Of a stretch of 64,000 nt of DNA, positions 39,118-59,643 are shown piece by piece. The first letter of the stretch is position 1. Every line of letters starts with the position of its first letter. The translations under genes and the position numbers were made by a program. This DNA comes from Patescibacteria group bacterium (GTDB taxonomy: Bacteria; Patescibacteriota; Microgenomatia; UBA12405), in NCBI GenBank assembly GCA_018902845.1, contig JAHIPV010000013.1:18766-82765 (forward strand), read 5' to 3'. The notes under the pieces are model-generated. The model worked only from the letters and a program-made list of their open reading frames with translations. It was not told the DNA's origin and did no database searches.

Positions 39118-39149
39118 GGAAATTTAGATTTTAAATTTTAGATTTAATT
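39118..39149. repeat. Dispersed repeat family B copy 1 (ggaaatttagattttaaattttagatttaatt), ends 3 nt before rpsC ATG
   Basis: Near-identical copies at 41999, 49410, 59613. Confidence 0.7.
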
Positions 39150-39152
39150 AAT

Positions 39153-39791
39153 ATGGGACAAAAAGTTAATCCTATCGGTTTTAGAATGGGAAAAATCGAC
39201 AATGCACCGCCTTGTCAGTCTTCCTGGTTTGCTTCTCTAAAAAATTATGCATCCTTTCTTTTAGAAGACAAAAAAATCAGAGATTATGTTCAAAAAAAAT
39301 GCTACACCGCCGGTTTGGTTTCTACCAAAATACAAAGATTTAACAAACGCATAAAAATTACACTTGTTGTTAGTCGTCCCGGCATAGTCATTGGTCGCGG
39401 AGGTAGTGAACTGGAGCAAACCAAAAAAGAATTAATACAAATCACCAAGCTTCCGTCTGACAAGAATTTGGATATACAGGTAGAGGAATTTAAAATTCCA
39501 GAATTATCATCGAAGTTAGTAGCAGAAAAAATTGCTTATCAGTTAACAAAAAGAATGCCTTATCGACGCATAGTTTTATCTGCAATCGAAAGGGCCATGA
39601 GTTCAGGAGCACAGGGAGTTAAAATCGTTCTTTCGGGCAGAATAAACGGTGCCGAAATTAGCCGTCGGGAAAAGTTTTCTCAAGGTAAAGTTCCCTTAAG
39701 TACCCTAAGATCAAGAATTGATTATTATGAATGTCCCTCCCTTACTCGTTCCGGCTATATTGGAGTTAAGGTTTTTATTTGTCTGGGATAA
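39153..39791 (+). CDS. rpsC: 30S ribosomal protein S3
   Basis: MGQKVNPIGFR.., KH domain, ..GVKVFICLG C-terminus. Confidence 0.93.
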   Translation: MGQKVNPIGFRMGKIDNAPPCQSSWFASLKNYASFLLEDKKIRDYVQKKCYTAGLVSTKIQRFNKRIKITLVVSRPGIVIGRGGSELEQTKKELIQITKLPSDKNLDIQVEEFKIPELSSKLVAEKIAYQLTKRMPYRRIVLSAIERAMSSGAQGVKIVLSGRINGAEISRREKFSQGKVPLSTLRSRIDYYECPSLTRSGYIGVKVFICLG

Positions 39792-39801
39792 AAAATTTAA
39801 T

Positions 39802-40206
39802 ATGTTACAACCAAAAAAAAGTAAATTTAGGAAACAGTTTAGAGGTAAAATGCGTGGTAATTCCAAGGGTGCTATAATGAATTTCGGTGAATATGGGCTA
39901 AAAGCCATTGGTAGATCTTGGCTTACTCCAAACCAAATAGAAGCAGCCCGTAAAGCAATAACCAACTACACCAAAAGAAAAGCCAAAGTTTGGATAAGAA
40001 TTTTTCCAGACAAACCTATTACACAAAAAGGAGCAGGTGCTCCGCTTGGGGCAGGGAAAGGAGATGTTTGTGGTTACGTTTGTGTCGTCAAACCCGGCAG
40101 AATAATTTTTGAAATTTCCGGTGTGTCGGAAGAAATTTCCCTAGAAGCCTTAAAAAGAGCTTCTTCTAAGTTACCAGTAGTTACCAAAATTGTGAGAAAA
40201 AAATAA
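39802..40206 (+). CDS. rplP: 50S ribosomal protein L16
   Basis: MLQPKKSKFRKQFRGKMRG.. canonical L16 N-terminus; start at ATG 39802. Confidence 0.93.
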   Translation: MLQPKKSKFRKQFRGKMRGNSKGAIMNFGEYGLKAIGRSWLTPNQIEAARKAITNYTKRKAKVWIRIFPDKPITQKGAGAPLGAGKGDVCGYVCVVKPGRIIFEISGVSEEISLEALKRASSKLPVVTKIVRKK

Positions 40207-40208
40207 AA

Positions 40209-40460
40209 ATGATCAAAAAAACGGATAAAATCGCTTACCGACAAAAAAGCATCGAACAACTAAAAGCCGAATTGCTGTTAATTAGAAAAAAATTAGCCCA
40301 AGACTGTTTCAAACTTTCCATGGGGCAAATAAAAGACACTTCGGTCATAAAAAAATCAAAATATATGATATCTTTCATTTCAACATTAATTAATGAAAGC
40401 AAGCCAAAGCGCAGTCCGCCTCTGGAGGAGGAATCTACAAAAAACAATGACAACAAATAA
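40209..40460 (+). CDS. rpmC: 50S ribosomal protein L29
   Basis: Position and L29-like helical sequence (SIEQLKAELLLIRKKLAQDCFKLSMGQ). Confidence 0.8.
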   Translation: MIKKTDKIAYRQKSIEQLKAELLLIRKKLAQDCFKLSMGQIKDTSVIKKSKYMISFISTLINESKPKRSPPLEEESTKNNDNK

Positions 40461-40722
40461 TAAACAAAGCAACCAGTCTCAAAACGGTAAAATTTTTACT
40501 GGAACAGTTGTTTCTGACAAAATGCAGGGTACTCTTGTGGTCACTTTTGATTACAAACGTAAACACCCAATTTACAAAAAAATCATTAAGAAAAAACATA
40601 AAATATATGTTGACAACAATTTAAATGCCAAAAAAGGGGATATTGTTAGAGTCAGGGAATCTCGTCCTTTAAGTAAAACCAAAAAATTTACTACCTTAAA
40701 AATCATTAAATCAGTTAAATAA
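40447..40722 (+). CDS. rpsQ: 30S ribosomal protein S17
   Basis: ..FTGTVVSDKMQGTLVVTFDYKRKHPIYKK.. S17 core. Start at ATG 40447, overlapping the rpmC end by 14 nt. Confidence 0.88.
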   Translation: MTTNNKQSNQSQNGKIFTGTVVSDKMQGTLVVTFDYKRKHPIYKKIIKKKHKIYVDNNLNAKKGDIVRVRESRPLSKTKKFTTLKIIKSVK

Positions 40723-40735
40723 TTAGGATAAATTT

Positions 40736-41104
40736 ATGTTGCAACTAAGAAGTATTATTAAAGCGGCAGATAATTGTGGAGCCAAAAAACTTCAGGTTAT
40801 CCATATCTATACCGGTCATCATCACAAAAGCGGTACAATAGGAGATATTGTCTTGGCAGTAGTAAAAGAAGCCATTCCTTCTGGTATTGTTAAGAAAAAA
40901 GAAAAAGTAAAACTGGTCATTGTCAGGACAAAAAAAGAAATAGGCAGAAAAGACGGTTCGTTTATTCGTTTTAGTGATAATGCTGGTGTTATAATAGACA
41001 ACCAAAATAATCCCAGAGGAACAAGAATTTTTGGACCAATCGCTCGCGAGATCAAAGATTTAGGTTTTAGTAAAATTGCTTCCATGGCCAAAGAGGTTTA
41101 TTAA
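40736..41104 (+). CDS. rplN: 50S ribosomal protein L14
   Basis: MLQLRSIIKAADNCGAKK.., RFSDNAGVIIDNQNNPRGTRIFGPIAREI. Confidence 0.95.
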   Translation: MLQLRSIIKAADNCGAKKLQVIHIYTGHHHKSGTIGDIVLAVVKEAIPSGIVKKKEKVKLVIVRTKKEIGRKDGSFIRFSDNAGVIIDNQNNPRGTRIFGPIAREIKDLGFSKIASMAKEVY

Positions 41105-41105
41105 T

Positions 41106-41432
41106 ATGAAAATAAAAAAAGGAGACAAAATACAAGTTTTAAGCGGTAAGGATAAGGGGCGTAAAGGTGAGGTAATTCGTTGTCTACCTAAGAAACTAAA
41201 AGTTTTAATAAAGGGTTTAAACATTTACAAAAAACACGTCAAGGCTCAATCTAATCAGCCGGGGGGAATCATAGAGATAGAAAAACCTCTTTATGTTTCC
41301 AAGGTTCAATTAATATGTCCCAATTGTCAGAAAAAAACAAAGGTTGGCTATCAGCTGGATAAAACAAATAAAAAATTCAGAGTTTGTAAAAAATGCAAAA
41401 ATATTATTGATAAGGAAATAAGTAAAAAATAA
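41106..41432 (+). CDS. rplX: 50S ribosomal protein L24, with C-terminal C4 zinc-ribbon-like motif
   Basis: MKIKKGDKIQVLSGKDKGRKGEV KOW region, then CPNC ... CKKC near the C-terminus. Confidence 0.88.
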   Translation: MKIKKGDKIQVLSGKDKGRKGEVIRCLPKKLKVLIKGLNIYKKHVKAQSNQPGGIIEIEKPLYVSKVQLICPNCQKKTKVGYQLDKTNKKFRVCKKCKNIIDKEISKK

Positions 41433-41438
41433 AACAAT

Positions 41439-41990
41439 ATGCTAAAACAACAATTTAAACAAAAAATTCAAAAAGAACTTTGGCAAAAGTTAAACAAAGG
41501 CAATATTAATGCCGTACCCATGCTTCAAAAAGTAGTCATTAATTGTCGAGTACAGGGAGCCAAAGAAAATAAAGAAATTCTTGAGCTGGCGGGAGTCGAA
41601 TTAATGGCCCTAACAGGGCAAAAACCAAAACTTTGTTGTGCCAAAAAATCAGAGGCCAGTTTCAAATTAAGAGAGGGCGACCCCTTAGCACTCAAAATTA
41701 CATTGCGAAGTGGCAAAATGTATGATTTTGTCGAAAAATTATTCAACCTGGTTTTACCAAGATTAAGGGATTTTCGTGGCTTATCGGCCAATTCATTTGA
41801 CAATGGGGCCAATTACAATCTTGTTATAAAAGATCAAACATATTTTCCTGAAATTAACCTTGACAAAGTTAAGCAAATTAGATCGGTTCAGGTGACCCTC
41901 GTTACCAGCACCTCTTCAAAAGAGGAGGCAAAAATGTTATTATCCGCCCTAGGCTTACCATTTAAAAAAGAAGACAAAGAAAGTAATTAA
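41439..41990 (+). CDS. rplE: 50S ribosomal protein L5
   Basis: ..RLRDFRGLSANSFDNGANYNLVIKDQTYFPEI.. L5 signature. Confidence 0.93.
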   Translation: MLKQQFKQKIQKELWQKLNKGNINAVPMLQKVVINCRVQGAKENKEILELAGVELMALTGQKPKLCCAKKSEASFKLREGDPLALKITLRSGKMYDFVEKLFNLVLPRLRDFRGLSANSFDNGANYNLVIKDQTYFPEINLDKVKQIRSVQVTLVTSTSSKEEAKMLLSALGLPFKKEDKESN

Positions 41991-41998
41991 TTTTATTT

Positions 41999-42029
41999 GG
42001 AAATTTAGATTTTAAATTTGTGATTTATC
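41999..42029. repeat. Dispersed repeat family B copy 2, ends 3 nt before rpsN ATG
   Basis: ggaaatttagattttaaatttgtgatttatc. Confidence 0.7.
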
Positions 42030-42032
42030 AAT

Positions 42033-42218
42033 ATGGCCAATAAAGCAAAAATAGCAAGAGAAAATAAAAAACTAAGGTTTAAAACCCGTTACCATAACAG
42101 ATGTTCCTTGTGTGGCAGACCTCGTGGTTTTATCAGATTTTTTGGTCTTTGTAGACTATGTTTTCGTGAATTAGTTCACAAGAGCTTATTACCTGGAGTC
42201 AAAAAATCCAGCTGGTAA
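42033..42218 (+). CDS. rpsN: 30S ribosomal protein S14 type Z (zinc-binding)
   Basis: 61 aa, CSLCGR...CRLCFRE C4 motif. Confidence 0.93.
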
Positions 42219-42226
42219 CAAAATCC

Positions 42227-42262
42227 GTCATCCTGAGCTTGCCGAAGGATCCCGTCGGAATT
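42227..42262. repeat. Dispersed repeat family A copy (cgtcatcctgagcttgccgaaggatcccgtcggaatt), followed by an (AAAAATT)n tract at 42262-42300
   Basis: Nearly identical to the copy embedded in the 3' end of rplM (50457-50484). Confidence 0.7.
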
Positions 42263-42305
42263 ATAAAAAAATTAAAAAATTAAAAAATTAAAAATTAAAT
42301 AAAAT

Positions 42306-42695
42306 ATGCACAGTAGTCCAATATTAGATTTTTTGGTTAGAATAAAAAATGCCTATGCAGTAGGCAAAAAAACTATTAAATCTCCTTCGTCTAAAACCAG
42401 AGAATCGATTGCAAAGTTGATGGTCAAACACTCTTATCTGGATAATTTTAGTGTCGAAGGTAAAACCAAAAAAATCATTACTCTAAAACTTTCTTATAAC
42501 GACAAAGAACCAAGTTTTACTAATTTAAAAATTTTTTCTAAACCTGGTCGAAGAATTTATTCGCCGGTCAGTTCCCTGCCTTGGGGAAAAACTAAAAATT
42601 CATTAATTATAGTTTCTACTTCAACAGGGATTATCTCTCACAAGGAAGCAAAGAAACAAAACGTCGGTGGTGAAATTATCGCCGAAATCTGGTAA
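42306..42695 (+). CDS. rpsH: 30S ribosomal protein S8
   Basis: Position and S8-like sequence (..LDFLVRIKNAYAVGKK.., GGEIIAEIW end). Confidence 0.9.
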   Translation: MHSSPILDFLVRIKNAYAVGKKTIKSPSSKTRESIAKLMVKHSYLDNFSVEGKTKKIITLKLSYNDKEPSFTNLKIFSKPGRRIYSPVSSLPWGKTKNSLIIVSTSTGIISHKEAKKQNVGGEIIAEIW

Positions 42696-42700
42696 AAAAT

Positions 42701-43240
42701 ATGTCAAAAATTGGAAAACAGCCAATACTAATACCAAAAGAAGTCACCGTTTCTATTGGTAAAACTTCGGTTACAGTTAAAGGCCCCAAAGGGGAGCTTT
42801 TTTTGGATATTCCTCATAAAATAAAAATAAAATTAGTTGATGACCAAATAATTGTTGAACGTTTGTCCGAAGAGAAAAAAGTAAAATCGCTTCACGGCAC
42901 CATCCGCTCTTTGATAAAAAATATGGTCAAGGGAGTCACTGAACTTTGGAAAAAAGAATTAGAAATTCGTGGCACTGGTTACAGAGCTACGGTTTCCGGT
43001 TCGAAGCTTATCGTAAATGCCGGTTTCATCAATCCCGTAGAAGTTGATATACCCACAGGTATCAATATTGATGTCCAGAAAGAAACAGAAATCACAATTT
43101 CTGGTTATGATAAAATACTGGTCGGACAAATTGCCAGCAATATTAGAAAAATAAGAAAACCAGAACCATACAAAGGCAAAGGTATTCGATACAAGGATGA
43201 ATATATCAAACTTAAACCAGGCAAAACCGCCAAAGCATAA
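42701..43240 (+). CDS. rplF: 50S ribosomal protein L6
   Basis: MSKIGKQPI.IPK.V.V... two-domain L6 pattern. Confidence 0.92.
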   Translation: MSKIGKQPILIPKEVTVSIGKTSVTVKGPKGELFLDIPHKIKIKLVDDQIIVERLSEEKKVKSLHGTIRSLIKNMVKGVTELWKKELEIRGTGYRATVSGSKLIVNAGFINPVEVDIPTGINIDVQKETEITISGYDKILVGQIASNIRKIRKPEPYKGKGIRYKDEYIKLKPGKTAKA

Positions 43241-43243
43241 AAA

Positions 43244-43591
43244 ATGATTAAAAAAAACCCAAAATATCAAAGGCAAAAAAGAGTCAGAAATAAACTTCTC
43301 TCTGTTGGCAAGGGGCTATTCCGACTTTCTGTTTTTAGATCAAACAAACATATATTGGCCCAAATAATTGACGATAAACACGGTAAAACTCTTGTTTTTT
43401 TCAGTTCACAAAAACTTAAAAACAGCAAAATTAACAAAATTGAACAGGCTAAATTGGTTGGAGAAAAAATTGCTCTACTTGCACTCAAAAAAAATATCAA
43501 AAAAATCAAATTTGACCGTGGTTGTTACAAATATCACGGTCGTGTTAAAGCATTGGCAGATGCCACCAGGCAGGGTGGTTTAATTTTTTAA
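43244..43591 (+). CDS. rplR: 50S ribosomal protein L18
   Basis: ..[18 protein letters not shown].., C-terminal ..[15 protein letters not shown]. Confidence 0.9.
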
Positions 43592-43592
43592 T

Positions 43593-44048
43593 ATGAATAA
43601 TCGGTATCAAAACAAAAAAGACTCAGAATTTCAAGAAAAAGTAGTCCAAATTAAAAGAGTCTCAAAAAAAACCAAAGGGGGAAACCAAATTTCCTTTACG
43701 GCTCTGGTAGTTTCTGGCGATAAAAAATCCAGAGTAGGAGTTGCTCTTGGCAAAGCAAAAAATGTGGCCGACGCAATCAAAAAAGGAGTTCAAAAAGCCC
43801 AAAAAAACCTAATCAACGTAGAAATTGTCGATGGAACCATTCCTCATCAGATCAAATTTAAATTTAAATCCGCAGTGGTTTTGATCAAGCCGGGTAGAAA
43901 AGGAGGCGGTCTTATTGCTGGCGGTCCTGTCAGAGCCGTACTTGAATTAGCCGGCATCAAGGATGTTGCTTCAAAAATAATCCGTTCCAAAAACAAATCT
44001 GTTAACGTTTGGGCCGTTTTCAAAGCCTTATCCAAATTAAAATCATGA
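43593..44048 (+). CDS. rpsE: 30S ribosomal protein S5
   Basis: ..VVQIKRVSKKTKGGNQISFTALVVSGD.., ..GGGLIAGGPVRAVLELAGIKDV. Confidence 0.93.
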   Translation: MNNRYQNKKDSEFQEKVVQIKRVSKKTKGGNQISFTALVVSGDKKSRVGVALGKAKNVADAIKKGVQKAQKNLINVEIVDGTIPHQIKFKFKSAVVLIKPGRKGGGLIAGGPVRAVLELAGIKDVASKIIRSKNKSVNVWAVFKALSKLKS

Positions 44049-44506
44049 AAAGTATATTAAGCAAATTATCAAAAACCACTACCAAATCAAAAAAAAGAAT
44101 TGGCCGCGGTTATGGTTCAAAAAAAGGGGGCCACACTACTATCCGTGGTGCCAAAGGTCGCAAAGCCAGGGGAAAGGTCAAGTTAACTTTTGATGGTACC
44201 AAAATCAAAAAAGGCTGGATAAAAAGATTACCATTTTTAAGAGGCAAAGGTAGATTAAAGGGCTTACAGAAAAGGACAACCATTTTTAGTCTAGAGCAAT
44301 TACACAAATGGTTTAAAGACGGAGACTTAATTGATATCAAAGCCCTAAGTCAGGCTTCAAAAATCCCGGAATCAATATTAAGAAAAACCGGCGTTAAGAT
44401 TCTTTCTTCAAAAGAAAAAATCACCAAATCTTTTGTCTTTAAGGAGATTTCTTTTTCCAAAACAGCCAAAGATCAATTGGTAAAAACTGGTGCTAAGATA
44501 AATTAA
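44045..44506 (+). CDS. rplO: 50S ribosomal protein L15
   Basis: ..[23 protein letters not shown].. Start ATG 44045 overlaps the rpsE stop (ATGA). No rpmD (L30) gene between rpsE and rplO. Confidence 0.9.
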
Positions 44507-45786
44507 TGAAAAAAAAGAATAAACTTCTATCTCTTTATTTACAAAGTTTTCAGGTTCCTAACTTACGAAACAGGTTGCTAATTACCATCGTCCTCCTTAT
44601 ACTTTTCCGATTTATAGCCCACATTCCGGTTCCGGGTATAAATCTGGAACTTTTAAAAAGTTTTTTCTCATCTAACCAACTGCTTTCTCTGTTAGATATT
44701 TTTTCCGGCGGTACCCTGGCAAATTTTTCTATTGTTGCTCTTGGTTTAGGACCTTACATAAACGCTTCGGTCATGTTCCAGCTCTTTGCCCTAGTTATTC
44801 CAAAAATAGAAGAGTTAAGCAAAGAAGGGGAATATGGACGGGCCAAAATTAACCAATACACCCGCATTATCACTATTCCTTTGGCCATAGTTCAGGCTAT
44901 TGGTATGTATGGTATCTTGCGTTCGCAAAACATAATAGGCACCTTGTCCCCTCTCCTTTTAGTTGCTCTCATTGCCAGCATGCTTTGCGGTACCATGATT
45001 ATGATTTTTTTGGGTGAATTGATTGATACCTACGGTGTCGGCAATGGCACTTCTATGATTATTTTTGCCGGTATTATCGCTCGTTTGCCGATTAATTTCT
45101 TTCAAACGGCCAATATTACGGATTTTTCTAACCCCCAAAATATTTTAAATTTATCAATTTTTCTCTTATTGATCACGGTTTTAGTGGGAGGGGTGGTTTT
45201 TGTAGAGGAAGCTGTTTTACGCATTCCGGTTCATTATGCCAGAAGAGCCCAATCTACTTTTCTGCCCATAAAAATAAATAGTACCGGAGTCATGCCCATA
45301 ATTTTTGCCATGTCCCTAGCCTCAGCTCCTTCCTTAATCGGTCAATTTTTAAGCAAAGCTCCTCAGCCACAGCTTGCTTCTTTTGCCTCCAGTTTTTCCT
45401 CATTTTTTAATCCAAATAGCATTCCTTATTCTCTACTTTATTTTATATTTGTCATGTTTTTTACTTTTTTTTATTCATCAGTCGTTTTTAAGCCAAAAGA
45501 TATTGCCGAGGATCTCAGAAAATCTGGGGCTTTCATTCCGGGTATCCGTCCCGGTTCAGCCACTGAAAAAAGATTAACTTACCTTGTCAACCGCATAATG
45601 GTTGTAGGGGCTCTTTTTTTGGGATTGGTGGCTATTTTTCCGTCAATTCTCCAAAACATAACAAATATCAACACTCTAAATATAGGTGGAACCAGTATTT
45701 TAATTGTAGTTTCGGTTTTAATTGAGTTAACCAAAAAAATGGAAAACGCCGTCCAAACCTACAATTACGACAAATTTGTATTCTAA
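44506..45786 (+). CDS. secY: Preprotein translocase subunit SecY
   Basis: 426 aa, 10 TM segments, conserved SecY blocks. Confidence 0.93.
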
Positions 45787-45787
45787 T

Positions 45788-46384: not shown

Positions 46385-46391
46385 CTATCTC

Positions 46392-46461
46392 GTCATTCTG
46401 AACAAAGTGAAGAATCCCAACGGGATCCTTCGTCCAATTGATCGGACTCAGGATGACGACA
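46392..46461. repeat. Dispersed repeat family A copy with inverted terminal half (gtcattctgaacaaagtgaagaatcccaacgggatccttcgtcc ... ggactcaggatgacgac)
   Basis: 5' half nearly identical to copy at 359-383. 3' end carries the reverse complement of the GTCATCCTGAG core. Confidence 0.7.
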
Positions 46462-46502
46462 TAAAAATAATCAAAAACAACTTATTAATAATTTATAAAA
46501 AT

Positions 46503-46883: not shown

Positions 46884-46888
46884 GTAAA

Positions 46889-49276: not shown

Positions 49277-49317
49277 CTTCTATAACTCATCAAAGTGAGA
49301 TTCAGTTAGAAAACACC

Positions 49318-49356
49318 CGTCATCCCGAGCGCGGTCGAGGGATCCCGTGGGGAATT
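49318..49356. repeat. Dispersed repeat family A copy (cgtcatcccgagcgcggtcgagggatcccgtggggaatt), followed by AT-heptamer tract and a family-B copy
   Basis: Composite 167-bp rpoA-rplQ spacer. Confidence 0.7.
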
Positions 49357-49409
49357 GTAAAAATTTATTAAAAATTAAAAATTAGAGATTAAAAAAGTTT
49401 AAAAATTTT

Positions 49410-49441
49410 GGAAATTTAGATTTTAAATTTTGAATTTAATT
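49410..49441. repeat. Dispersed repeat family B copy 3, ends 2 nt before rplQ ATG
   Basis: ggaaatttagattttaaattttgaatttaatt. Confidence 0.7.
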
Positions 49442-49443
49442 AT

Positions 49444-50028
49444 ATGCGTCATCGAAAATTCGGCAAAAAACTAGGAAGAAATCATCATCAACGAAAAGCT
49501 TTACTCAAAAGTTTGGTTAGGGCTGTTTTTACTCATGGTAGTATTAATACCACCATGGCAAAGGCAGAGGCAGTCTCTCCCTTAATAGAAAAAATCTGCA
49601 CTAGAATAAAAAAAGCAGACTTAAGTAGCAAAAGATATCTATATAGATATCTTCAGGACAGAAAATGGGTAAAAATAGTTGAGGAAGCTTTTTTAAAAGT
49701 TTTTCCGGACAGAAATTCAAATTTCCTAAAAATTTCTAAAGTTAAAAAAAGACAAGGAGACGATGCCACAATAGTTAACTTAGCTTTTGTCAAAACTGTT
49801 TCTTTTAATGTAGGGGAGACCCTTGCGGTCGCCCGCAAAAAAACAAAAGAAAGCTTAAGTTCAAAAAATTTATTAGGGCTCAAAAACAAGCTAAAGCGCA
49901 GTTCGTTTCAGGCAAAACAAAAGCAACAATCGTCTGTAGGAACAACTTTTGCAGTCGCTCGCAAAAATATAAAAATGAAAAAGAAAACAAGTCAGAGCGA
50001 ACTTACTCGAAGGGGAAAATCTAAATGA
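49444..50028 (+). CDS. rplQ: 50S ribosomal protein L17 with 76-aa C-terminal extension built from two copies of repeat family C
   Basis: L17 core in aa 1-118 (MRHRKFGKKLGRNHHQRKALLKSLV..). Extension contains in-frame gtaggggagacccttgcggtcgcccgcaaaaaaac (49810-49844) and gtaggaacaacttttgcagtcgctcgcaaaaatataaaaatg (49936-49977). Confidence 0.88.
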   Translation: MRHRKFGKKLGRNHHQRKALLKSLVRAVFTHGSINTTMAKAEAVSPLIEKICTRIKKADLSSKRYLYRYLQDRKWVKIVEEAFLKVFPDRNSNFLKISKVKKRQGDDATIVNLAFVKTVSFNVGETLAVARKKTKESLSSKNLLGLKNKLKRSSFQAKQKQQSSVGTTFAVARKNIKMKKKTSQSELTRRGKSK

Positions 50029-50492
50029 AAAAGATAACAACCATAAAACCAATAAAAGACATCAAAAGATATTGGCATTTCATCGACCTAGAAGGCCAAA
50101 CTCTTGGTCGCATTAGCACAAAAATTGCCAAACTTTTAACCGGAAAGGATAAGGTCCAATTTTGTTATCATCACGATTGGGGAGATTATGTCATCGCTGT
50201 TAATTCTAATAAAATAAAAACTACAGGTAAAAAGCTAAAAGACAAAATTTATTATCGTCATTCTGGTTACGCTGGCAATTTAAAAGAAATTCAATTAAAA
50301 GACTTGATGAAAAAAGATTCCAGAAAAGTTATTTATGCATCGGTTTATGGAATGGTAGCCAAAAACAAATTACGAAAACCAAGAATGCGAAGATTAAAAA
50401 TCTTTAAAACCGCAGATCATCCTTATCAAGGCAAGCTTAAAGGTTTATCTCCCAAGCGTCATCCTGAGCTTGCCGAAGGATCACAAAAATAA
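50025..50492 (+). CDS. rplM: 50S ribosomal protein L13 with C-terminal tail encoded by a repeat-A copy
   Basis: L13 core (..YWHFIDLEGQTLGRISTKIAKLL.GK..). Last 12 codons (KRHPELAEGSQK) are the in-frame repeat cgtcatcctgagcttgccgaaggatcac at 50457-50484. Confidence 0.9.
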   Translation: MKKITTIKPIKDIKRYWHFIDLEGQTLGRISTKIAKLLTGKDKVQFCYHHDWGDYVIAVNSNKIKTTGKKLKDKIYYRHSGYAGNLKEIQLKDLMKKDSRKVIYASVYGMVAKNKLRKPRMRRLKIFKTADHPYQGKLKGLSPKRHPELAEGSQK

Positions 50493-50495
50493 TTT

Positions 50496-51820: not shown

Positions 51821-53263
51821 TTATAATGTGTTTACTGCCCTTTCCAGTCTTTTAATCGTTTTGTCTCTTCCTAAAATCGGTAAACATTCTACAATTGGCG
51901 GTGTAATTTTTTGTCCGCTCAAAGCCACTCTAAACACCATAAAATACTGTCCCGTATTCCAATTATTTTTTTTAATCAACTCCAGTAGTTTATTTTGAAT
52001 ATTGACAACATCATCCCAATTCTTAGTTTCTTTTAATAATTCTGTTGTCTTATCCATCATTTCTGTTACCAGCTCTTTTGTTGCCCCTCTTTGCAACAGC
52101 ATTTCCTTATCATATTTAATCTCTTCAAACAAAAACTTAGTTAATTCAACTGCGTCAGACAACCTAGTGATTCTTTCTTTTAGCAGGGGAGCCAGATATA
52201 ACAATATTTCATCATCAACTTTTGGTAAAAAAGTTTTCAACAATTTTGCTAATTCTTTATCGCTTTTTTTCTGAATGTAATGTTTATTAAAATAATCAAG
52301 TTTTTTTCTATCAAAAGCAGGCGCTTTTTTGTGTAATCTTTCCAAACTAAACTCTTCGATAAACTCATCCAGGCTAAAAAATTCTCTTTCGTCTCCGGGA
52401 TTCCATCCCAAAAGCATCAAAAAATTGAGCAAGGCTTCGGGTAAATATCCATCATTTAAAAAATTTCGGGCAGACCAAGATCCGTGTCTTTTAGATATTT
52501 TCCCTCTCCTTTCTGGGTCCATCAAATCAGTTAGATGCGCAAATACTGGTATATTCCAACCAAAACATTTATACAAAATTACCTGTTTCGGGGTTGAAGG
52601 TATCCAAGCCTGTCCTCTCATTATGTGGCTGATTTCCATTAAATGGTCATCAATTACCACGGCAAAATGGTAAGTGGGAATTCCATCAGATTTGATCAAC
52701 ACTTGATCATCTATATCTTTGCTTGGTACCGAAATTTTTCCTCTGATAAAATCCGTCCAAACAATTACCTCATTATCTGGAACTTTCATCCGGATTACAT
52801 ATTTTTCTCCTGCTTTTAATCTTTTTTCTACCTCACTTTTTGATAGTTGCAGGCACTTCCTGTCATATTTTGGTAATTTGCCATCGGCTTTCTGTGACTT
52901 TCTCATTTCATCCAATCTCTCTTCACTGCAAAAACAACAATAGGCAAAACCATTTTTTATCAATTGATCAGTATATTTTTTATAAATACCCAACCTCTCT
53001 GTTTGAATATAAGGACCATATTTGCCACCTTTCTTGGGTCCTTCGTCCCAGTCAAAGCCATAGTCTCTAATTACTTCAAACATTCTTTCTTGCGCTCCAG
53101 CAACAAGCCTTTTTCTGTCAGTATCCTCAATTCGAATAATAAACTGACCTTTGTTTTTTCTAGCAAAAGCATAGTTATAAAGAAGTGTTCTCATGTTCCC
53201 AATCTGATATTCTCCCGTTGGACTCGGCGCCATTCTGGTTCTGACTATTTTTTTACCACTCAT
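51821..53263 (-). CDS. gltX: Glutamyl-tRNA synthetase (class I), HIGH-box His replaced (PSPTGEYQIGN)
   Basis: RMAPSPTGEYQIGNMRTLLYNYAFARK.., KMSKS-like GKISKRHGS, C-terminal anticodon-binding helices. Confidence 0.9.
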   Translation of the reverse strand: MSGKKIVRTRMAPSPTGEYQIGNMRTLLYNYAFARKNKGQFIIRIEDTDRKRLVAGAQERMFEVIRDYGFDWDEGPKKGGKYGPYIQTERLGIYKKYTDQLIKNGFAYCCFCSEERLDEMRKSQKADGKLPKYDRKCLQLSKSEVEKRLKAGEKYVIRMKVPDNEVIVWTDFIRGKISVPSKDIDDQVLIKSDGIPTYHFAVVIDDHLMEISHIMRGQAWIPSTPKQVILYKCFGWNIPVFAHLTDLMDPERRGKISKRHGSWSARNFLNDGYLPEALLNFLMLLGWNPGDEREFFSLDEFIEEFSLERLHKKAPAFDRKKLDYFNKHYIQKKSDKELAKLLKTFLPKVDDEILLYLAPLLKERITRLSDAVELTKFLFEEIKYDKEMLLQRGATKELVTEMMDKTTELLKETKNWDDVVNIQNKLLELIKKNNWNTGQYFMVFRVALSGQKITPPIVECLPILGRDKTIKRLERAVNTL

Positions 53264-53292
53264 TTTACTATTTTATCATTATTTCTATCTAG

Positions 53293-53367
53293 CATCCTGA
53301 GTTTTCACCGTCATCCTGAGTGATCCGCCAACTGGCGGAGACCGAAGGATCCCGTCGGATTTTCCCC
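53293..53367. repeat. Repeat family A cluster (partial copy catcctgag + full copy with internal hairpin ccgcca-ac-tggcgg)
   Basis: agcatcctgagttttcaccgtcatcctgagtgatccgccaactggcggagaccgaaggatcccgtcgg. Confidence 0.7.
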
Positions 53368-53401
53368 CCAATAATCTTTTCTTTAGTTTATAATCAATTT
53401 A

Positions 53402-54442
53402 ATGTCCTTAACTCATACTGCCTACAGTACTAGAAAACTAATTAAATTTGGCGGACTAGGTATTATTCTTTTTTCTTTTGCCTGGTCTTTTCTTGTCACC
53501 GGAATCAAAGCTTATCGCAAGGCCCATCCGCCCAAGCTCCCTCCAACAGTTCGTTTTGGTAAACTGCCACCAATCACTTTTCCGTCAAAAAAAATAGAAA
53601 AGAAAGATTTTGTTTTAGAATTAGCTGATGATAAATTTTCAGAATTTCCCGATTCCGCTAAGGTTTATGTAGTCTATCGACCCACCAGTACTATCTTAGC
53701 TCTAGAAGAAGATACAAAAACAGCCAGAAGTCTTGGTTTTGTAACTCAGCCTATAAAAATTAACGACGGAGTTTACCAATTTCAAAACACTACTTTTAAA
53801 AAAACATTAACCATGAATATCTTAGATGGCAGTTTCAAGCTGGAATATCCATACAAAAAAGACCAAACCTTACAAGGTTCTGGAAAACTTCCCGACAAAA
53901 ACCAAGCCATTGATACGGCCAAAGCCTTTTTGAGAACAGCCGGAAAACTCGGTCCAGATCTTGAGACCGGAGAACAAACTATCACTTTTTGGAAAATAAG
54001 TTTTGATGGTCTTCATTCAGTTTTATCCCATTCAGAAGCCAATGCCATAAGAGTAGATTTTTTAAGAGAAAACCCAGAAAAAGATATGAAAATTTATTCC
54101 ACTAAGCCCGATAAGTCTTCAGTATCGGTCCTGGTCAGCAATTCAGCGGTTGAAAACAAAAGGATTATAGATGTTGATTACAAATATTCCCCGATTGATC
54201 GTGAATCTTTTTCTACTTACCCCATCAAATCGGCCATCCAGGCATGGGAAGAATTAAAAGCAGGTGATTATTGGCCGGCCATACAAGACTCTTCTGCCAC
54301 CGTCTCCATTCGCAATGTTAATTTGGCCTATTTTGAGCCCAGTAGTTTAACTAATTACATGCAACCAATCTTTGTATTTACTGGCGATAACGATTTTACC
54401 GCTTATGTTCCGGCTATATCTTCATCCTGGATTTCAGAATAA
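53402..54442 (+). CDS. Hypothetical membrane-anchored protein (346 aa, N-terminal TM, large extracytoplasmic region)
   Basis: Single N-terminal hydrophobic segment (LGIILFSFAWSFLV). No recognisable family. Confidence 0.55.
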   Translation: MSLTHTAYSTRKLIKFGGLGIILFSFAWSFLVTGIKAYRKAHPPKLPPTVRFGKLPPITFPSKKIEKKDFVLELADDKFSEFPDSAKVYVVYRPTSTILALEEDTKTARSLGFVTQPIKINDGVYQFQNTTFKKTLTMNILDGSFKLEYPYKKDQTLQGSGKLPDKNQAIDTAKAFLRTAGKLGPDLETGEQTITFWKISFDGLHSVLSHSEANAIRVDFLRENPEKDMKIYSTKPDKSSVSVLVSNSAVENKRIIDVDYKYSPIDRESFSTYPIKSAIQAWEELKAGDYWPAIQDSSATVSIRNVNLAYFEPSSLTNYMQPIFVFTGDNDFTAYVPAISSSWISE

Positions 54443-54449
54443 TCTATCT

Positions 54450-54588
54450 GTCATCCCGAGCGCAGTCGAGGGATCTCCCCGGAATTTAAACTTCCATTTG
54501 GGATTCTTCTCCGCCAACTGGCGGATCAGAATGACGCCTTTCTCCCACCCGTCATCCTGAGTGAGTTTTACGACCGAAGGATCCCATC
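54450..54588. repeat. Repeat family A cluster: forward copy, inverted half-copy (ggcggatcagaatgacgcc) and second forward copy, with ccgccaactggcgg hairpin
   Basis: gtcatcccgagcgcagtcgagggatctcc ... ccgccaactggcggatcagaatgacg ... cgtcatcctgagtgagttttacgaccgaaggatcccatc. Confidence 0.7.
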
Positions 54589-55501
54589 AATATTCTTCCC
54601 ACTCAATGTTCTTTTTCGCCCATTCAAGTAATTGCAAAGTATCCGCAAATCGATCCTCACTTTGCGCCACCACACTAATCAATCTGTGTCCTTCTATGTT
54701 TAACAATCCCGCAAAACATCCACCAGCCTCCGGTGTCCACCCGGTCTTCAGCCCTTCAACTTCTGGCACTGTTTCCAGTAATTCATTTGTATTAAGCAGT
54801 AAGTGTTCCGTGCCATTCCTGCTTGTTATTTTTAATTCTTTAATTTTTACTGTTTCTGTCACTGTTTTATTTTTAATTGCCAATCGTGCCACCTGAGCTA
54901 AATCATAAACAGTTGAATAGTGATTTTCGTCATGTATGCCGTCGTAATTAACAAAATTACTATCCTCTAATCCATTTTTTTTCAAAATTCCATTCATTTC
55001 TTTAACAAAACCATCCACTCCATTTTTGTGTTGTTTAGCCAAAACAAAAGCCGCATCATTGGCAGAATGAACCAACAAAGCCTTTACCAGATCTCTTATG
55101 CTTAATTTTTCTCCCACCTTAAGCTCCATTACCTTTCCATTTTCGTATTCTGTATCTATCTCTATAATTTCATCCAGGGGATAAATATTTAAAGCGGTTA
55201 GTGCTGTGATTAACTTTGTAGTGGAAGCCGGATAAATTCTTTCTTTTTCTTTTTTGCTTATCAAAATAGTATTTGTTTCTGTATCTAGGAGAATAAAAGC
55301 TTTAGCACTCAAAACAGGGGTAAAATTGGTTTTATTTTTTGTTACTGGTATTAATGGGTGTTGGTAATTGGCAAAGACGTTATTTTCTTTTCTTGTTTGT
55401 ATTGCCCTGCGGTCTAGATTAGAAACAATTAAATTAAACCACAAAAAAAATCCCAGTCCGCCTCCTAAAAAAATCAAAATCCTACTACGCTTTTTTCGCA
55501 T
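54587..55501 (-). CDS. D-alanyl-D-alanine carboxypeptidase (S11 family, PBP5/6-like)
   Basis: SxxK (ASTTK), SxN (HSANDAA), KTG (KTGWT) motifs, N-terminal TM. Confidence 0.85.
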   Translation of the reverse strand: MRKKRSRILIFLGGGLGFFLWFNLIVSNLDRRAIQTRKENNVFANYQHPLIPVTKNKTNFTPVLSAKAFILLDTETNTILISKKEKERIYPASTTKLITALTALNIYPLDEIIEIDTEYENGKVMELKVGEKLSIRDLVKALLVHSANDAAFVLAKQHKNGVDGFVKEMNGILKKNGLEDSNFVNYDGIHDENHYSTVYDLAQVARLAIKNKTVTETVKIKELKITSRNGTEHLLLNTNELLETVPEVEGLKTGWTPEAGGCFAGLLNIEGHRLISVVAQSEDRFADTLQLLEWAKKNIEWEEY

Positions 55502-57287
55502 AATTACCCTTTTTATGCTTAACCAATCTCACAAAGTCGATTAATTTCATCATTACTGATCTTGTTCGCAAACCGGCATTAAAGACAATTTTTTCGTTCT
55601 TCAAAAAGTTTTTATCCACATATACGGGCACATTAAACAAATTTCCAAACGGTGGTACAGCCCCAATTTTTACACCACTAATCTCTCCCACTTCATTTTC
55701 ACTCGCCATCCTTAAATTTTTGATCCCAAACAATTTTTTAAAAATAGTACTATCTAATTTTTCGGCTGCCGACAATACCACTAATATAGCTTTCTCGTCA
55801 GCAAACATCAGCAACGCTTTAGCACCCTGTTCTAGCTTTGTTCCTCTAGCATCCGCCGCCTCTTGTGATGTTCTTACTTCCTCATGTTTAATTTCTTCAA
55901 ACTCAACTTCTTCTTTTTTTAATAATTCAATCAAATTATCATACAAGTTTTTTTTCTTTTTTTTACGTAAATTTGATAATCTGATATCTATTCTTTCCAT
56001 GTCCCGTGGATAAAGAGTTGCTTGTCTGATATTGTCCAAGCCCAAAATATTTTGCGTAATTCTTTCTAGCCCTATACAAAATCCACCCTCTGGTGGCATA
56101 CCATATTTAAAAGCCTGTAAATAGGGGATTTCAAAATCCTTTGGATCAGCCCCCATCTTTTTAATATTCTTCACCAGTACGTCGTATTGGTGTATTCTCT
56201 GTCCTCCTGTGATCCATTCCACTCCACACCCAATCAAGTCAAAGCTTAAAGTTTCTTTGGGATTTTTAGGATTTTGATATGTATACCATGGTCTTTTTTT
56301 GGTGGGAAAATGGCTTATAAACACCATATCGCTTCCATGTTCTTCTTTAGACCATTTACAAATTCCCCTTTCTCCTTCAGGATCCATGTCCGGCTCACCT
56401 CTGATATCTCGCTTGGTTCTTTCAAAAATTATTTCTTGTGCTTCTGATAATTTTATAACCGGTGTTTTTTTGCAAGTTTCAGGAATTGTCATTCCATATT
56501 CTTCCAAAATATCGGCATGTTCTTGTTTTATTTTATTAAAAATCGCCTTAACCAGATTATCGGCCATTTCAACCACATCAAGCCAGCTGTCTATAAATCC
56601 AAACTCAACATCCAGGCCAACATATTCAGTCAAATGTCTGGTTGTTACACTTGGCTCAGCTCTGTAAGCGTGCGACAGAGTAAAAACCCTTTCAAAAATA
56701 GACACCATAATTTGTTTATAAAACTGCGGACTTTGAGCCATAAATGCTTTTTGGTCAAAATAATCAACAGCAAAAACCTGCGATCCGCCTTCTGTGGCGG
56801 TTGCTACAATAGTTGGCGCCTGAAATTCAACAAAATCATTTTTGTTCATGTATTCCCGAAAAGCCTTTACTATAGTTGCCTGTACTCTAAAAATATCAGC
56901 GGTTTTTTTATTTCTCAAAGACGCGTTTCTGTAATCAAGCATAACCGGTAGTGATACGTCCAGTTTGGGTTTATAAATGTCAAAAGGTAATTCGCCACTT
57001 TCAGACAAAACTTTAATTTTTTCCACTTCTATTTCTATTTTTCCGGTTGCTATTTTTTCATTAAAATTTTTCTCTTGTCTGTTTCTGACAGTTCCTGTGA
57101 TTTCCACTACATTTTCTCCATGCAATTTCCCCAGATCCTTACTACCAACCAATTGAATATAGCCCGACCTGTCTCTCAAATCGGCAAAAGATAATTTACC
57201 GTAACTTCTCACACTATTTATCCACCCACAAAGTCTCACTTTTTCCCCAACACACCCCAAAGTTTTAGATATAACCGTCCTCTTCAT
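55485..57287 (-). CDS. aspS: Aspartyl-tRNA synthetase (archaeal/AspRS2-like class IIb) fused to a C-terminal YbaK/ProX-type aminoacyl-tRNA deacylase domain
   Basis: N-terminal OB anticodon domain, class II motifs (FRAEPS.., GGQRIHQYDVL, YLQAFKYGMPPEGGFCIGLER, LYPRDMERI), then about 135 aa ..TSQEAADARGTKLEQGAKALLMFADEKAILVVLSAAEKLD..LRMASENEV.EISGVKIGAVPPFG matching the YbaK deacylase fold. Confidence 0.8.
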   Translation of the reverse strand: MKRTVISKTLGCVGEKVRLCGWINSVRSYGKLSFADLRDRSGYIQLVGSKDLGKLHGENVVEITGTVRNRQEKNFNEKIATGKIEIEVEKIKVLSESGELPFDIYKPKLDVSLPVMLDYRNASLRNKKTADIFRVQATIVKAFREYMNKNDFVEFQAPTIVATATEGGSQVFAVDYFDQKAFMAQSPQFYKQIMVSIFERVFTLSHAYRAEPSVTTRHLTEYVGLDVEFGFIDSWLDVVEMADNLVKAIFNKIKQEHADILEEYGMTIPETCKKTPVIKLSEAQEIIFERTKRDIRGEPDMDPEGERGICKWSKEEHGSDMVFISHFPTKKRPWYTYQNPKNPKETLSFDLIGCGVEWITGGQRIHQYDVLVKNIKKMGADPKDFEIPYLQAFKYGMPPEGGFCIGLERITQNILGLDNIRQATLYPRDMERIDIRLSNLRKKKKKNLYDNLIELLKKEEVEFEEIKHEEVRTSQEAADARGTKLEQGAKALLMFADEKAILVVLSAAEKLDSTIFKKLFGIKNLRMASENEVGEISGVKIGAVPPFGNLFNVPVYVDKNFLKNEKIVFNAGLRTRSVMMKLIDFVRLVKHKKGNYAKKA

Positions 57288-57447
57288 TTCTTCCTAGTCT
57301 ACCACAGCCACGCTCGATTTCAGACACCAACTTATTGCCCGACTCTCACCCTTGTATGTCCAGATCGTCTATCTATCAACAATGGCAAATGTCGTATTCT
57401 CTTATCCAAAACATTTTTAAAAAACATCAAAAAACCTCTCAAAATCA

Positions 57448-57810
57448 TTATCGTGCATACGGATTTTGCTTTCGTGCAGTACCTCTTTTCACTCTGACAC
57501 GCTCTCTTTTTCTAGTAAAGTATTCCACATTATCACCAACGCTACTTCTTTGGACTATTTTTTTATAGCTCTTAGCTAACAAGATGGCCCCTCTTCTTCC
57601 GGTAAACTCAGTTGGATTAGTTTCTATTGCAACCCTTGTCATTGTGGGAGATCCAAGTTCGGCATGATACTCTGTCTTCAATCTAACATCTGCTTCTGCC
57701 CAATCGTTCATTCCATGTCTTGCCATTAATTTATCGCGAACAGGAAATCCCGTCTCCGTTCTAACTCTCGATACTCTATCTCGTCCTAATTTGTAATCAT
57801 TTCTAAACAT
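57448..57810 (-). CDS. Small basic hypothetical protein (120 aa), GC-richer than surroundings, leaderless-type promoter
   Basis: Start MFRNDYKLGRD.. 8 nt downstream of an extended -10 TGcTATAAT (minus strand; + coords 57819-57827) with TTGACT -35 (57840-57845). No family recognised. Confidence 0.45.
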   Translation of the reverse strand: MFRNDYKLGRDRVSRVRTETGFPVRDKLMARHGMNDWAEADVRLKTEYHAELGSPTMTRVAIETNPTEFTGRRGAILLAKSYKKIVQRSSVGDNVEYFTRKRERVRVKRGTARKQNPYAR

Positions 57811-57818
57811 AACCCACA

Positions 57819-57845
57819 TTATAGCACACAAGTTGATAAAGTCAA
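57819..57845 (-). promoter_or_regulatory. Promoter TTGACT-N15-TGcTATAAT for the 57810 gene
   Basis: See previous feature. Confidence 0.5.
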
Positions 57846-57908
57846 TTCTTTACATAGGTCACAGACATTTTCAACATTCGGTCTTGTTCTGTTATTAATA
57901 ATTGACGT

Positions 57909-59537
57909 TTAGTGATTAGTATTTATCTCTCTTACCATCAACTGCGGTTTTTGTTTTCCTCCCCAACTATTTATTTCCATCCCAGCTACAATATCAACAC
58001 AGGCTCCGGTTTTTAATTGCTCAAACAAATATCCTTTTTTAAAAGCAATGGCATCAACAAAATTATCACCCAGCACCAATTTCAAATGACTTTTATCACC
58101 ACCCACCAGTCTTTTTTGAGCCACTTTTACATTTTTAAACCAAAACATAGGTTCTTGATTTTCCATTCCAAAAGGCAATAATTTTTCAATAGCTTTACAA
58201 TTAGAAAGCTTTACAGCCCCCATTTCCATTTCTGCTTCAACTTCAATAGCCTTTTCAATTTTCTTTTTTCCCAATTTTTTGTTAATAATTTTAATAATTT
58301 TTTTTCTAAATTCTTCAATATTTTTAGTCTCAATACTAAAACCAGCCGCGCCCTTGTGTCCCCCCACATCTATCAAAAGTTTGTCAGTTTCCCTCAAAGT
58401 CTTAATGATATCCAGCTCCTTTATCGATCTACATGATCCTTTGGAAATTTTTTTACTCTCACTTATAACAATTGCCGGCAAGCCATATTTTTCAGTCAAA
58501 TTACCGGCAATCAGTCCAATCACGCCTTCGTGATATTTCTTGTCAGAGATAAAAATAACTCGATCTTTATTCAATTCACACCCTTTCTTTGCCATTTCAA
58601 AAGATTTTTTTTGTAGTTTTTGCCGTTCTATGTTTAATTGATTTAATTTATCAGCGTATTTATCCAGCAAATTTCCATTCAGGCATAATAATCTCAAGGC
58701 ATCGGTTGCATCTCCCAGTCTGCCTACTGCATTAATTCTTGGTCCAATAACAAAACCAAGGTGATAACTGGACAAATCCTCAATTTTTACTCCTGCTGTT
58801 TTTATCAATTTTTTAATACCCAAATTAGGATTTTCTCGCAAATATTTGATTCCCCAATAAACTATATTTCTATTTATCCCCAAGAGTGGTACACAATCAG
58901 CCACCGCCCCCAAAGCCGCTAAACCCAAATCGGCTTTTTTACTGAATTCTTTTGCCAAAAGCCAAGATAAAACACTAGCCGAAGTTCCGGTCGAGTGAAT
59001 TATCCCACTTACTTTTAATTTATTTTCGTCTTTTTGGTGATGATCAATTATCACCACATCTACATCTCTTTTTTTGATTCTTTTAATTTCTTTATTGGCA
59101 ACTATTCCATTGTCCACCGTAACAAGCAAAGAAAATTTAATATTCTTTGCCTTTTCAAACTCTATAAAACTTTTATACTTGATTCCATACCCATCTTTTT
59201 CCCGATCGGGAATAAAAGGCAAAACCTTGCCCCCCTTTTCATTTAATGCCATCCACAAAATCGCCGTTGATGTAATTCCATCCACATCATAATCGCCATA
59301 AATCAAGATATTTTCTTTATTTTCAACTGCCTTTTTAATTCTTTTTACACTTTTTTCAAATCCATTTTTACCGACACCAAATTCTTTCAGATTTAATTTA
59401 TCGGGATTTTCAGGTTTCAAAAATCCCTCAACTTCCTCTTTTTTTACTCCTCTATTCTTCAACAAAATTCCCAGCAACTCTCCTGCACTAGTCTTATCCG
59501 TTACCAATAATTTACTTTTTCTTACTATACTTGCCAC
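57909..59537 (-). CDS. recJ: Single-stranded-DNA-specific exonuclease RecJ (DHH/DHHA1)
   Basis: YGDYDVDGITSTAIL (DHH motif I), VVIIDHH, GGHKGAAGF (DHHA1). Confidence 0.88.
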   Translation of the reverse strand: MASIVRKSKLLVTDKTSAGELLGILLKNRGVKKEEVEGFLKPENPDKLNLKEFGVGKNGFEKSVKRIKKAVENKENILIYGDYDVDGITSTAILWMALNEKGGKVLPFIPDREKDGYGIKYKSFIEFEKAKNIKFSLLVTVDNGIVANKEIKRIKKRDVDVVIIDHHQKDENKLKVSGIIHSTGTSASVLSWLLAKEFSKKADLGLAALGAVADCVPLLGINRNIVYWGIKYLRENPNLGIKKLIKTAGVKIEDLSSYHLGFVIGPRINAVGRLGDATDALRLLCLNGNLLDKYADKLNQLNIERQKLQKKSFEMAKKGCELNKDRVIFISDKKYHEGVIGLIAGNLTEKYGLPAIVISESKKISKGSCRSIKELDIIKTLRETDKLLIDVGGHKGAAGFSIETKNIEEFRKKIIKIINKKLGKKKIEKAIEVEAEMEMGAVKLSNCKAIEKLLPFGMENQEPMFWFKNVKVAQKRLVGGDKSHLKLVLGDNFVDAIAFKKGYLFEQLKTGACVDIVAGMEINSWGGKQKPQLMVREINTNH

Positions 59538-59612
59538 TTACTCATTCTATCAACTTATGATTTTAAAATGTTTGTCAGTAATGACAATATTAAATAATTT
59601 TGGGTTTAATTT

Positions 59613-59643
59613 GGAAATTTAGATTTTTGATTTCAGATTTATC
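59613..59643. repeat. Dispersed repeat family B copy 4 in the recJ / RRM-gene divergent spacer
   Basis: ggaaatttagatttttgatttcagatttatc. Confidence 0.6.

Follow-up and report, generated by a model that had tools for sequence, protein, structure and literature searches.

The stretch of DNA analyzed here, 64,000 nucleotides of contig JAHIPV010000013.1 (assembly GCA_018902845.1, positions 18,766 to 82,765; hereafter the window), carries the S10-spc-alpha supercluster of ribosomal protein (r-protein) genes of a member of the Patescibacteria. Our subject is family B, an AT-rich repeat of about 31–40 bases that directly precedes rpsC, rpsN and rplQ within this supercluster. The window is 99.99% identical to contig JAHIJS010000018.1 of GCA_018898085.1, and homologues of L5 and DnaE put the host among the Shapirobacteria-like Patescibacteria. 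Our sample of this organism came to ~99 kb. Besides the window, we used the contigs L147 and L149, from the same metagenome-assembled genome (MAG), and L150, an ENA contig that overlaps the 5' end of the window.

Family B copies and the junctions they occupy

A search of the window with the 18-mer TTTGGAAATTTAGATTTT located exact matches on the + strand at 39115, 41996, 49407 and 59610. These are the four sites of the preliminary description of this DNA, which had placed family B before rpsC, rpsN and rplQ with a fourth copy further on; its coordinates began 3 nt inside the element, which is immaterial. That description overlooked a fifth copy, a match with two mismatches at 15139 (+), upstream of a 684-aa open reading frame (ORF). 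With up to three mismatches allowed the 18-mer matched seven times in the window, against a mean of 1.46 in shuffles, none of which reached seven, and a 32-nt degenerate pattern of the family matched only the four exact sites, with 0.00 matches expected by chance. A repeat search grouped all five window copies as a single family of 43 nt, and the block that copies share measured 31–43 nt.

The first copy, c1 (39115..39152, +), lies between rplV (stop 39097) and rpsC (ATG 39153), with TTGGAA at 39116-39121 and the hexamer TAGATT at 39139-39144. Copy c2 (41996..42032, +) is located between rplE (stop 41990) and rpsN (ATG 42033; TTGGAA 41997-42002, GTGATT 42020-42025), and c3 (49407..49443, +) stands before rplQ (ATG 49444), with rpoA and a hairpin repeat on its upstream side (TTGGAA 49408-49413, TGAATT 49431-49436). 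Pfam assigned the genes following these copies to S3, S14 and L17, and those preceding them to L22, L5 and RpoA. Copy c4 (59610..59645, +; TTGGAA 59611-59616, CAGATT 59634-59639) has no nearby start codon; it occupies the divergent region between recJ (- strand, start 59537) and a gene for an RRM protein, whose ATG (59820) is 175 nt downstream. The diverged copy c5 (15139..15176, +; TTGGAA 15140-15145, CAAATC 15163-15168) has 6 mismatches over 31 nt, and the ATG that follows it after 8 nt (15177) opens an ORF of only four codons (ATG TTG TAT TCT TAA). The 684-aa ORF begins at ATG 15195, 3 nt past the stop of this short ORF and 6 nt past a TATTCT.

The four near-identical copies have a common layout of TTGGAA, a 17-nt spacer and an nnRATT hexamer, which is TAGATT in the best copies. 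The distance from hexamer to ATG is 8 nt at rpsC and 7 nt at both rpsN and rplQ, where c3 can alternatively be parsed as GAATTT, the spacer then being 18 nt and the gap 6 nt. The arrangement of TTGGAA followed 17 nt later by a hexamer, as previously proposed, could be read at all copies, and the AGATTT iterons noted with it are RATTT units with a period of 7 nt. Four such units and the TTGGAA head are the conserved positions of the element, and Tandem Repeats Finder reported a period of 7 at 39123-39145 and 49403-49437. TTGGAA was invariant in all 11 copies examined in detail, from the window and elsewhere, and also heads two later copies on the same contig. It agrees with the -35 consensus TTGACA at 4 of 6 positions, TTG included, and the spacer is 17 bp in every copy. 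All five window copies are oriented toward the downstream gene, and an ATG follows the hexamer at 7–8 nt in 5 of 9 sense copies. The same junction sequences are present in independent NCBI, ENA, JGI and Logan assemblies of Aspo groundwater samples, and family B is thus not an assembly artefact; that some Logan contigs end inside the element is expected of a multi-copy repeat.

Most junctions of the window cluster range from -14 to +18 nt, with six exceptions, three of which carry family B: L22>S3 (55 nt), L5>S14 (42 nt) and RpoA>L17 (167 nt, together with a hairpin). The others are S14>S8 (87 nt, with a hairpin and a AAAAAATT array), Adk>IF1 (118 nt) and IF1>L36 (54 nt, with a canonical TTGATA-17-TACAAT before rpmJ). 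In relatives whose L5 is 80%, 67% and 66% identical, the rplV>rpsC, rplE>rpsN and rpoA>rplQ junctions measure 0–10 nt, and the three copies in the r-protein cluster are therefore lineage-specific insertions. Since they split tightly coupled essential genes, some initiation signal must compensate. The earlier view that repeated cassettes within the S10/spc/alpha cluster are unusual gains from this lineage specificity; internal promoters as such are not unusual there, given the TTGATA-17-TACAAT before rpmJ.

Other repeats accompany these junctions. The AAAAAATT array comprises 4.4 copies at 42266-42299, directly before rpsH, and has more units in a 98.5% identical strain (L128), making its length polymorphic between strains. 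That strain differs from the window by one substitution in c2 and none in c3, too few to gauge purifying selection. A GC-rich hairpin repeat without a T-run, GTCATCCCGAGCG...CGAGGGATC, lies at 49309..49354 (+) between rpoA and c3, where transcripts may end or be processed such that units are separated; a second member of the same family lies at 42223..42262 (+), directly 3' of rpsN, and with c2 possibly brackets rpsN as a separate unit. The family (GTCATCCYGAGC...GAAGGATC / CGAGGGATC) was found at 3117-3162, 42223-42262, 46388-46427, 49309-49354, 50454-50493, 53323-53362 and 54440-54485, at long r-protein-cluster junctions and gene ends and always without a T-run, one copy overlapping the 3' end of rplM. 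In general, this family may be an indicator of where transcripts end or are processed.

A second hairpin repeat, TGTAGGGGCGACCCTTGCG.TCGCCCGC, is present at 9618-9657, 49809-49848, 49935-49974 and 61728-61767. The two copies at 49809 and 49935 are both in the rplQ ORF and are translated in frame within a C-terminal extension of L17. The protein has 194 aa, relatives having 142–162 aa, and residue 116 is the last of its Pfam L17 domain. Scans of the window for Rfam families and tRNAs returned no matches, and the single isolated match of a viral scan of the window was taken as chance.

Leaderless signature and copies beyond the ribosomal genes

Examination of the upstream regions of all window genes revealed many canonical promoters that end 6–7 nt before the ATG. 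Of the 67 window genes, 14 have the pattern TAnnnT exactly 6 nt 5' of the start codon, four have it at 7 nt and five at 8 nt, with about two at each other offset, and a further 4+3+1 of 32 genes on contigs L147, L149 and L150 conform to it. It takes textbook form at 3217 (TTGACA-17-TATAAT-6-ATG) and at 7211 (TTGACA-17-TACAAT-6-ATG), and examples of the signature span 3180-3219, 7175-7213, 12975-13005, 51821-51860 (-), 53375-53404, 57909-57945 (-) and 60335-60366. Shine-Dalgarno (SD)-like motifs precede 12 of the 67 window genes, compared with a background of 7%. Based on the peak at 6 nt, leaderless expression looks common in this genome. The features of leaderless genes also characterize rpsC, rpsN and rplQ, which have ATG starts, gaps of 8, 7 and 7 nt, and no GGAG, GAGG or AGGA upstream. 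On the same contig, the match to RNase P RNA starts 8 nt past a TATAAT, which fits the distance that we assumed between -10 and transcription start in this organism. This RNA (L149:17225-17432) is very small, at 208 nt, and scored best with an archaeal Rfam model, RF00373 (90.7 bits). Our literature search turned up no publication that treats leaderless expression or promoters of Microgenomates-type Patescibacteria, and we know of no experimental work on promoters or translation initiation in this group.

Family B is not confined to r-protein genes. In a sister species (L137/L143/L145, GCA_018818375.1), TTGGAA-17-TAGATT-8-ATG stands directly before dnaE in the same form as c1. The orthologous site in the window's own MAG reads TTGTAAATTGTGAATTGAAAATTGAGAATTGAACA-ATG, that is, TTGTAA-17-GAGAAT-6-ATG, an array of about the same length as family B with 73% positional identity to it. 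As the geometry is kept and the array sequence differs between sister species, we counted this site in favor of a promoter. A perfect copy is located 4.7 kb past the window end on the same contig (L149:16946-16976); next to it comes ACTTAAAAGGAGGTGGTAATTA-ATG, leading into a DUF5679 zinc-ribbon gene, which has a strong GGAGG SD and its own terminator; a transcription start 7 nt past TAGATT would, from the spacing, give this gene an 18-nt SD-containing leader. The L136a copy precedes a GH39 (glycosidase) gene and is followed 8 nt later by TATACT-6-ATG. TAGATT or TAGACT is the hexamer of c1, L137, L136a, L135a, L135b and the L149 copy. Across the ~99 kb of this organism, all six intergenic copies face the downstream gene, and a seventh is antisense inside ychF.

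The metagenome scan for family B identified at least six loci, with the copy-bearing JGI contigs L122 and L123 absent from its result. The scan of genome contigs with TTGGAANTTTAGATNTTNNATTT is no census of this genome and gave, among the matches listed, mostly unrelated (A/G)GATTTT runs, which occurred in cyanobacteria, Acidobacteriota, Bacteroidota and Bdellovibrionales. Throughout loci L001-L117, TTGGAAT-headed (A/G)GATTTT runs were widespread in Nostoc, Calothrix, Pyrinomonadaceae, Flavobacterium, Bdellovibrionales and some Patescibacteria. They were often accompanied by an inverted run with which they make hairpins, or were located directly 3' of a conserved gene end, ...PEGLLEF*.

The long region between c4 and the RRM gene has features of its own. 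Just 3' of c4 is a canonical-looking promoter, TTGCTT-16-TATACT (59650..59677, +), which by its sequence is a second candidate promoter of the RRM gene; c4 may instead lie at about -75 to -45 of it. The 5' region at 59675-59822 has a stem of 10 bp, CCAGAACUCAG...CUGGGUUCUG, and its folding is better than that of shuffles (z -1.9). A second assembly variant, L160, which breaks before the family B element, shows this region with hardly any change. The region may represent a regulatory leader by analogy with cold-shock or Rbp genes.

In the same MAG, the 209 nt that precede dnaE (L147:4780-4985) are taken up by CATAAAT/CATGAAT runs together with a TTGnnAA x5 array. Upstream of rplS on L147 are a hairpin repeat and a TTAAAAA/TTAGAAA array, at a gap that in the sister species is only 12 nt.

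A candidate promoter cassette and its alternatives

Based on these observations, we give about even chances to family B being a dispersed sigma-70-type promoter cassette of 7-nt RATTT repeats that yields near-leaderless mRNAs. The preliminary description had suggested an internal promoter with leaderless or short-leader transcripts, and this is still the best-supported reading, now strengthened by the leaderless signature of the genome, the geometry of the element, its presence before unrelated genes and the dnaE site, all of which are matters of sequence context and comparison. The core of the cassette would be a -35 TTGGAA, a 17-bp spacer and, in consensus copies, a -10 TAGATT. At rpsC, rpsN and rplQ it would have been inserted, or would have overwritten an older AT-rich array, and transcription is predicted to start 1–2 nt before the ATG; for c1 the predicted start is near A39151, which would leave a 2-nt leader. 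The supercluster would in this way be split into extra transcription units, the first gene of each being leaderless or nearly so. Near-leaderless mRNAs would be made at rpsC, rpsN, rplQ and dnaE, a mode that many first genes here appear to use, with an 18-nt SD-containing leader expected at the DUF5679 gene and, for the RRM and GH39 genes, either a tandem promoter or a long leader. A promoter would accommodate every sense-oriented copy and would explain how essential genes tolerate the loss of translational coupling.

We infer that the cassette probably spread when AT-rich heptamer arrays that resemble one another underwent gene conversion or recombination, and not by transposition. Conversion is the likeliest route because the replacements at ychF and dnaE were length-preserving and because terminal inverted repeats and target duplications are absent. 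The B-like segment in ychF encodes SKSKISNLNFQN in frame, in a variable loop of 12 aa whose length is constant among all homologues, which suggests that the repeat was written into the gene by conversion. A bolder version of this proposal is that a portable leaderless cassette, comprising -35, -10, start and, for several copies, also the AUG, spreads by gene conversion among AT-rich heptamer arrays and has rewired the universally conserved S10-spc-alpha supercluster of a Patescibacteria lineage into separate leaderless units. The loci that hold the cassette differ between sister species (for example, rpsN in this one and dnaE in the other). We regard this version as possible but doubtful.

A number of findings weigh against promoter function. 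Sigma-70 promoters depend most on T-12 and A-11, and the family B hexamer is conserved as nnRATT and not as TAnnnT, with T-12/A-11 missing from c2-c5. The weakest point is that the hexamers at rpsN and rplQ are without the key A at position 2 (A-11), and the GTGATT of c2 is the poorest -10 of the family. The best-conserved block, TTTGGAAATTTAGATTTT, corresponds to the -35 and half of the spacer, unlike the usual conservation of promoters. The best copy agrees with the sigma-70 consensus at 8 of 12 positions, and no copy was called by a simple consensus scan for sigma-70 promoters and terminators; that scan gave 59 promoter-like sites where shuffles gave an expected 50, which is uninformative in AT-rich DNA. 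The gap to the ATG is 7–8 nt, compared with the modal 6 nt of this genome. At c4, c5 and L136a a better -10 is present within 10–35 nt downstream (TATACT, TATTCT and TATACT-6-ATG, respectively), and family B could at these sites be mere upstream DNA. Finally, three metagenome copies (two on L135 and L136b) are antisense to both neighbours, and the B-like copy at L149:20163-20193, ~7.9 kb past the window end and with three mismatches, is antisense inside the ychF coding sequence (CDS). Because of these antisense and intragenic copies, presence of the element does not imply promoter use, and the sequence appears to spread regardless of function.

A first alternative is that family B is a neutral or selfish low-complexity repeat. 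Slippage in the intergenic DNA of these genomes would generate AT-rich heptamer arrays, conversion would have homogenised or spread one variant of them, and the resemblance to a promoter would be a by-product of AT-rich heptamers with TAG/TAA. Relatives do hold other heptamer arrays at the same or neighbouring junctions: L129 (83% L5 identity) has TAATTAG x4 before the rpsN GTG, and L131 (68%) has a TTTAGAA-type array within a 60-nt rplV-rpsC gap. Array copy number varies between strains, as for AAAAAATT in L128, and a B-like copy replaced the ychF loop at equal length. Arrays and hairpin repeats are also read in frame in miaA (L149:19440-19640, -), where translation runs through a TTGGAAA + TTGTGAT x3 array (+ strand) as well as a 57-nt repeat of hairpin type that is duplicated in tandem; miaA as called has 384 aa, and a typical MiaA has ~310 aa. 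Furthermore, (A/G)GATTTT runs occur in many phyla among the matches listed, and orientation is mixed outside the window. Against this reading stand the uniform orientation of the six intergenic copies of this organism, an ATG at a fixed 7–8 nt in five copies, and SD-less spacers of 42–167 nt that separate essential, normally tightly coupled genes only at these sites. The -35/-10 geometry kept at dnaE despite sequence turnover also speaks against it. We consider this explanation rather unlikely.

A role at the RNA level is, in our judgment, unlikely. The element would here be transcribed within the polycistronic mRNA and serve as an unstructured, AU-rich, SD-independent initiation or standby region for S3, S14 and L17, or its RATTT/UAG units of 7-nt period would be bound by an RNA-binding protein. 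Most genes of this genome are without an SD, such that SD-independent internal initiation must be common; the element together with the start region folds worse than shuffles (z +1.2 to +1.4); four RATTT units with a 7-nt period suit single-strand binders better than a -10 box; and no terminator was found between rplV and c1 or between rplE and c2. However, a perfect copy precedes a gene that already has a strong GGAGG SD, 175 nt separate c4 from the start of the RRM gene, and a leaderless promoter, TATACT-6-ATG, comes directly after L136a. The antisense and in-CDS copies cannot act in this manner, and relatives translate the same genes without any spacer.

The preliminary description had also offered an operator for autogenous regulation, with the repeated site as the target of an r-protein (S4, S8 or L4, for example); three copies do stand in the r-protein supercluster directly before start codons, but this idea is contradicted by the copies at the RRM, DUF5679, dnaE and GH39 genes, at the 684-aa ORF and inside ychF, by RNA that is less structured than shuffles with no stable or rRNA-mimicking fold and no Rfam r-protein leader match in the window, and by the absence of the element from related species with the same operons, and we hold it to be highly improbable.

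On inspection by eye we rejected several other site types: a sigma-54 site (no GG-N10-GC), ECF-type (extracytoplasmic function) -35/-10 elements, DnaA boxes or trios, a Bacteroidetes -33/-7 promoter (the genome clearly uses TTGACA/TATAAT), a dif/Xer site (family B is no palindrome) and a HutP-like (UAG-N4)3 site (most copies have UAA as the middle unit, and c2 and c3 have GUG or UGA as the third).

Comparison with known systems and significance

Autogenous r-protein operators, in which L4 acts on the S10 leader, S8 on spc and S4 on alpha, are structured rRNA mimics that occur once per operon. Family B shares with them its location in the S10-spc-alpha cluster beside start codons and differs in being unstructured, repeated and also present at non-ribosomal genes. 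Heptanucleotide short tandemly repeated repetitive (STRR) sequences were reportedly described from heterocystous cyanobacteria by Mazel and colleagues in 1990. Like family B they consist of tandem 7-nt units dispersed in intergenic DNA, and (A/G)GATTTT runs of Nostoc and Calothrix were among the matches listed in our scan. STRR arrays are longer and have no fixed relation to starts, whereas family B is a defined four-unit cassette with a unique TTGGAA head.

Leaderless gene architecture is said to have been treated by Zheng and colleagues in 2011. Leaderless genes of Actinobacteria and Deinococcus-Thermus, for example those cited from Cortes et al. 2013 (in PMC12641261), have in common with the family B sites a -10 located 6–8 nt before the start, no SD and an ATG. 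The differences are the Microgenomates/Shapirobacteria-like genome, the position of the genes in the middle of a supercluster and a -10 that is degenerate in two of three copies.

The closest parallel may be the putative mobile promoters of Matus-Garcia, Nijveen and van Passel (2012, as summarised in PMC3575422), which are defined by an identity of 80% or more across 50 nt or more of the -150..-50 region. As described there, these are, like family B, near-identical upstream sequences before non-homologous genes, with no known mobile element and an unknown mode of spread. The downstream genes of family B are non-paralogous, as that definition requires, and its shared block of 31–43 nt falls short of 50 nt; the element itself, at 31–40 nt, directly adjoins the start codon and contains the presumed -10, and some copies are antisense or intragenic. 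The same source presents the Correia elements of Neisseria, ERIC and REPIN as short dispersed repeats that are able to supply promoters and occasionally overlap ORFs (PMC3575422), traits that family B shares in being short and dispersed, in potentially supplying promoters and in overlapping an ORF. In contrast to these elements, family B is much shorter, is built from tandem heptamers and has no terminal inverted repeats, hairpin or target-site duplication. The window copies likewise do not resemble miniature inverted-repeat transposable elements, as they contain only imperfect AT palindromes that are not shared between copies and have differing flanks with no target duplication. What sets family B apart from these known systems is the leaderless geometry fused into the element, its construction from a heptamer array and its position in a ribosomal supercluster of the Patescibacteria.

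If inactive, family B would be an ordinary dispersed AT-rich heptamer repeat. If active, it would be a clean case of the propagation of a short promoter without a transposase, and it would provide a compact native promoter and leaderless start for genetic tools. An active cassette would also mean that even the most conserved operon of a reduced genome can be re-partitioned in a short time, freeing essential ribosomal genes from translational coupling. Should the portable form of the cassette prove true, it would, together with the TAnnnT-6-ATG signature, constitute direct genomic evidence for leaderless initiation as a main mode in Microgenomates.

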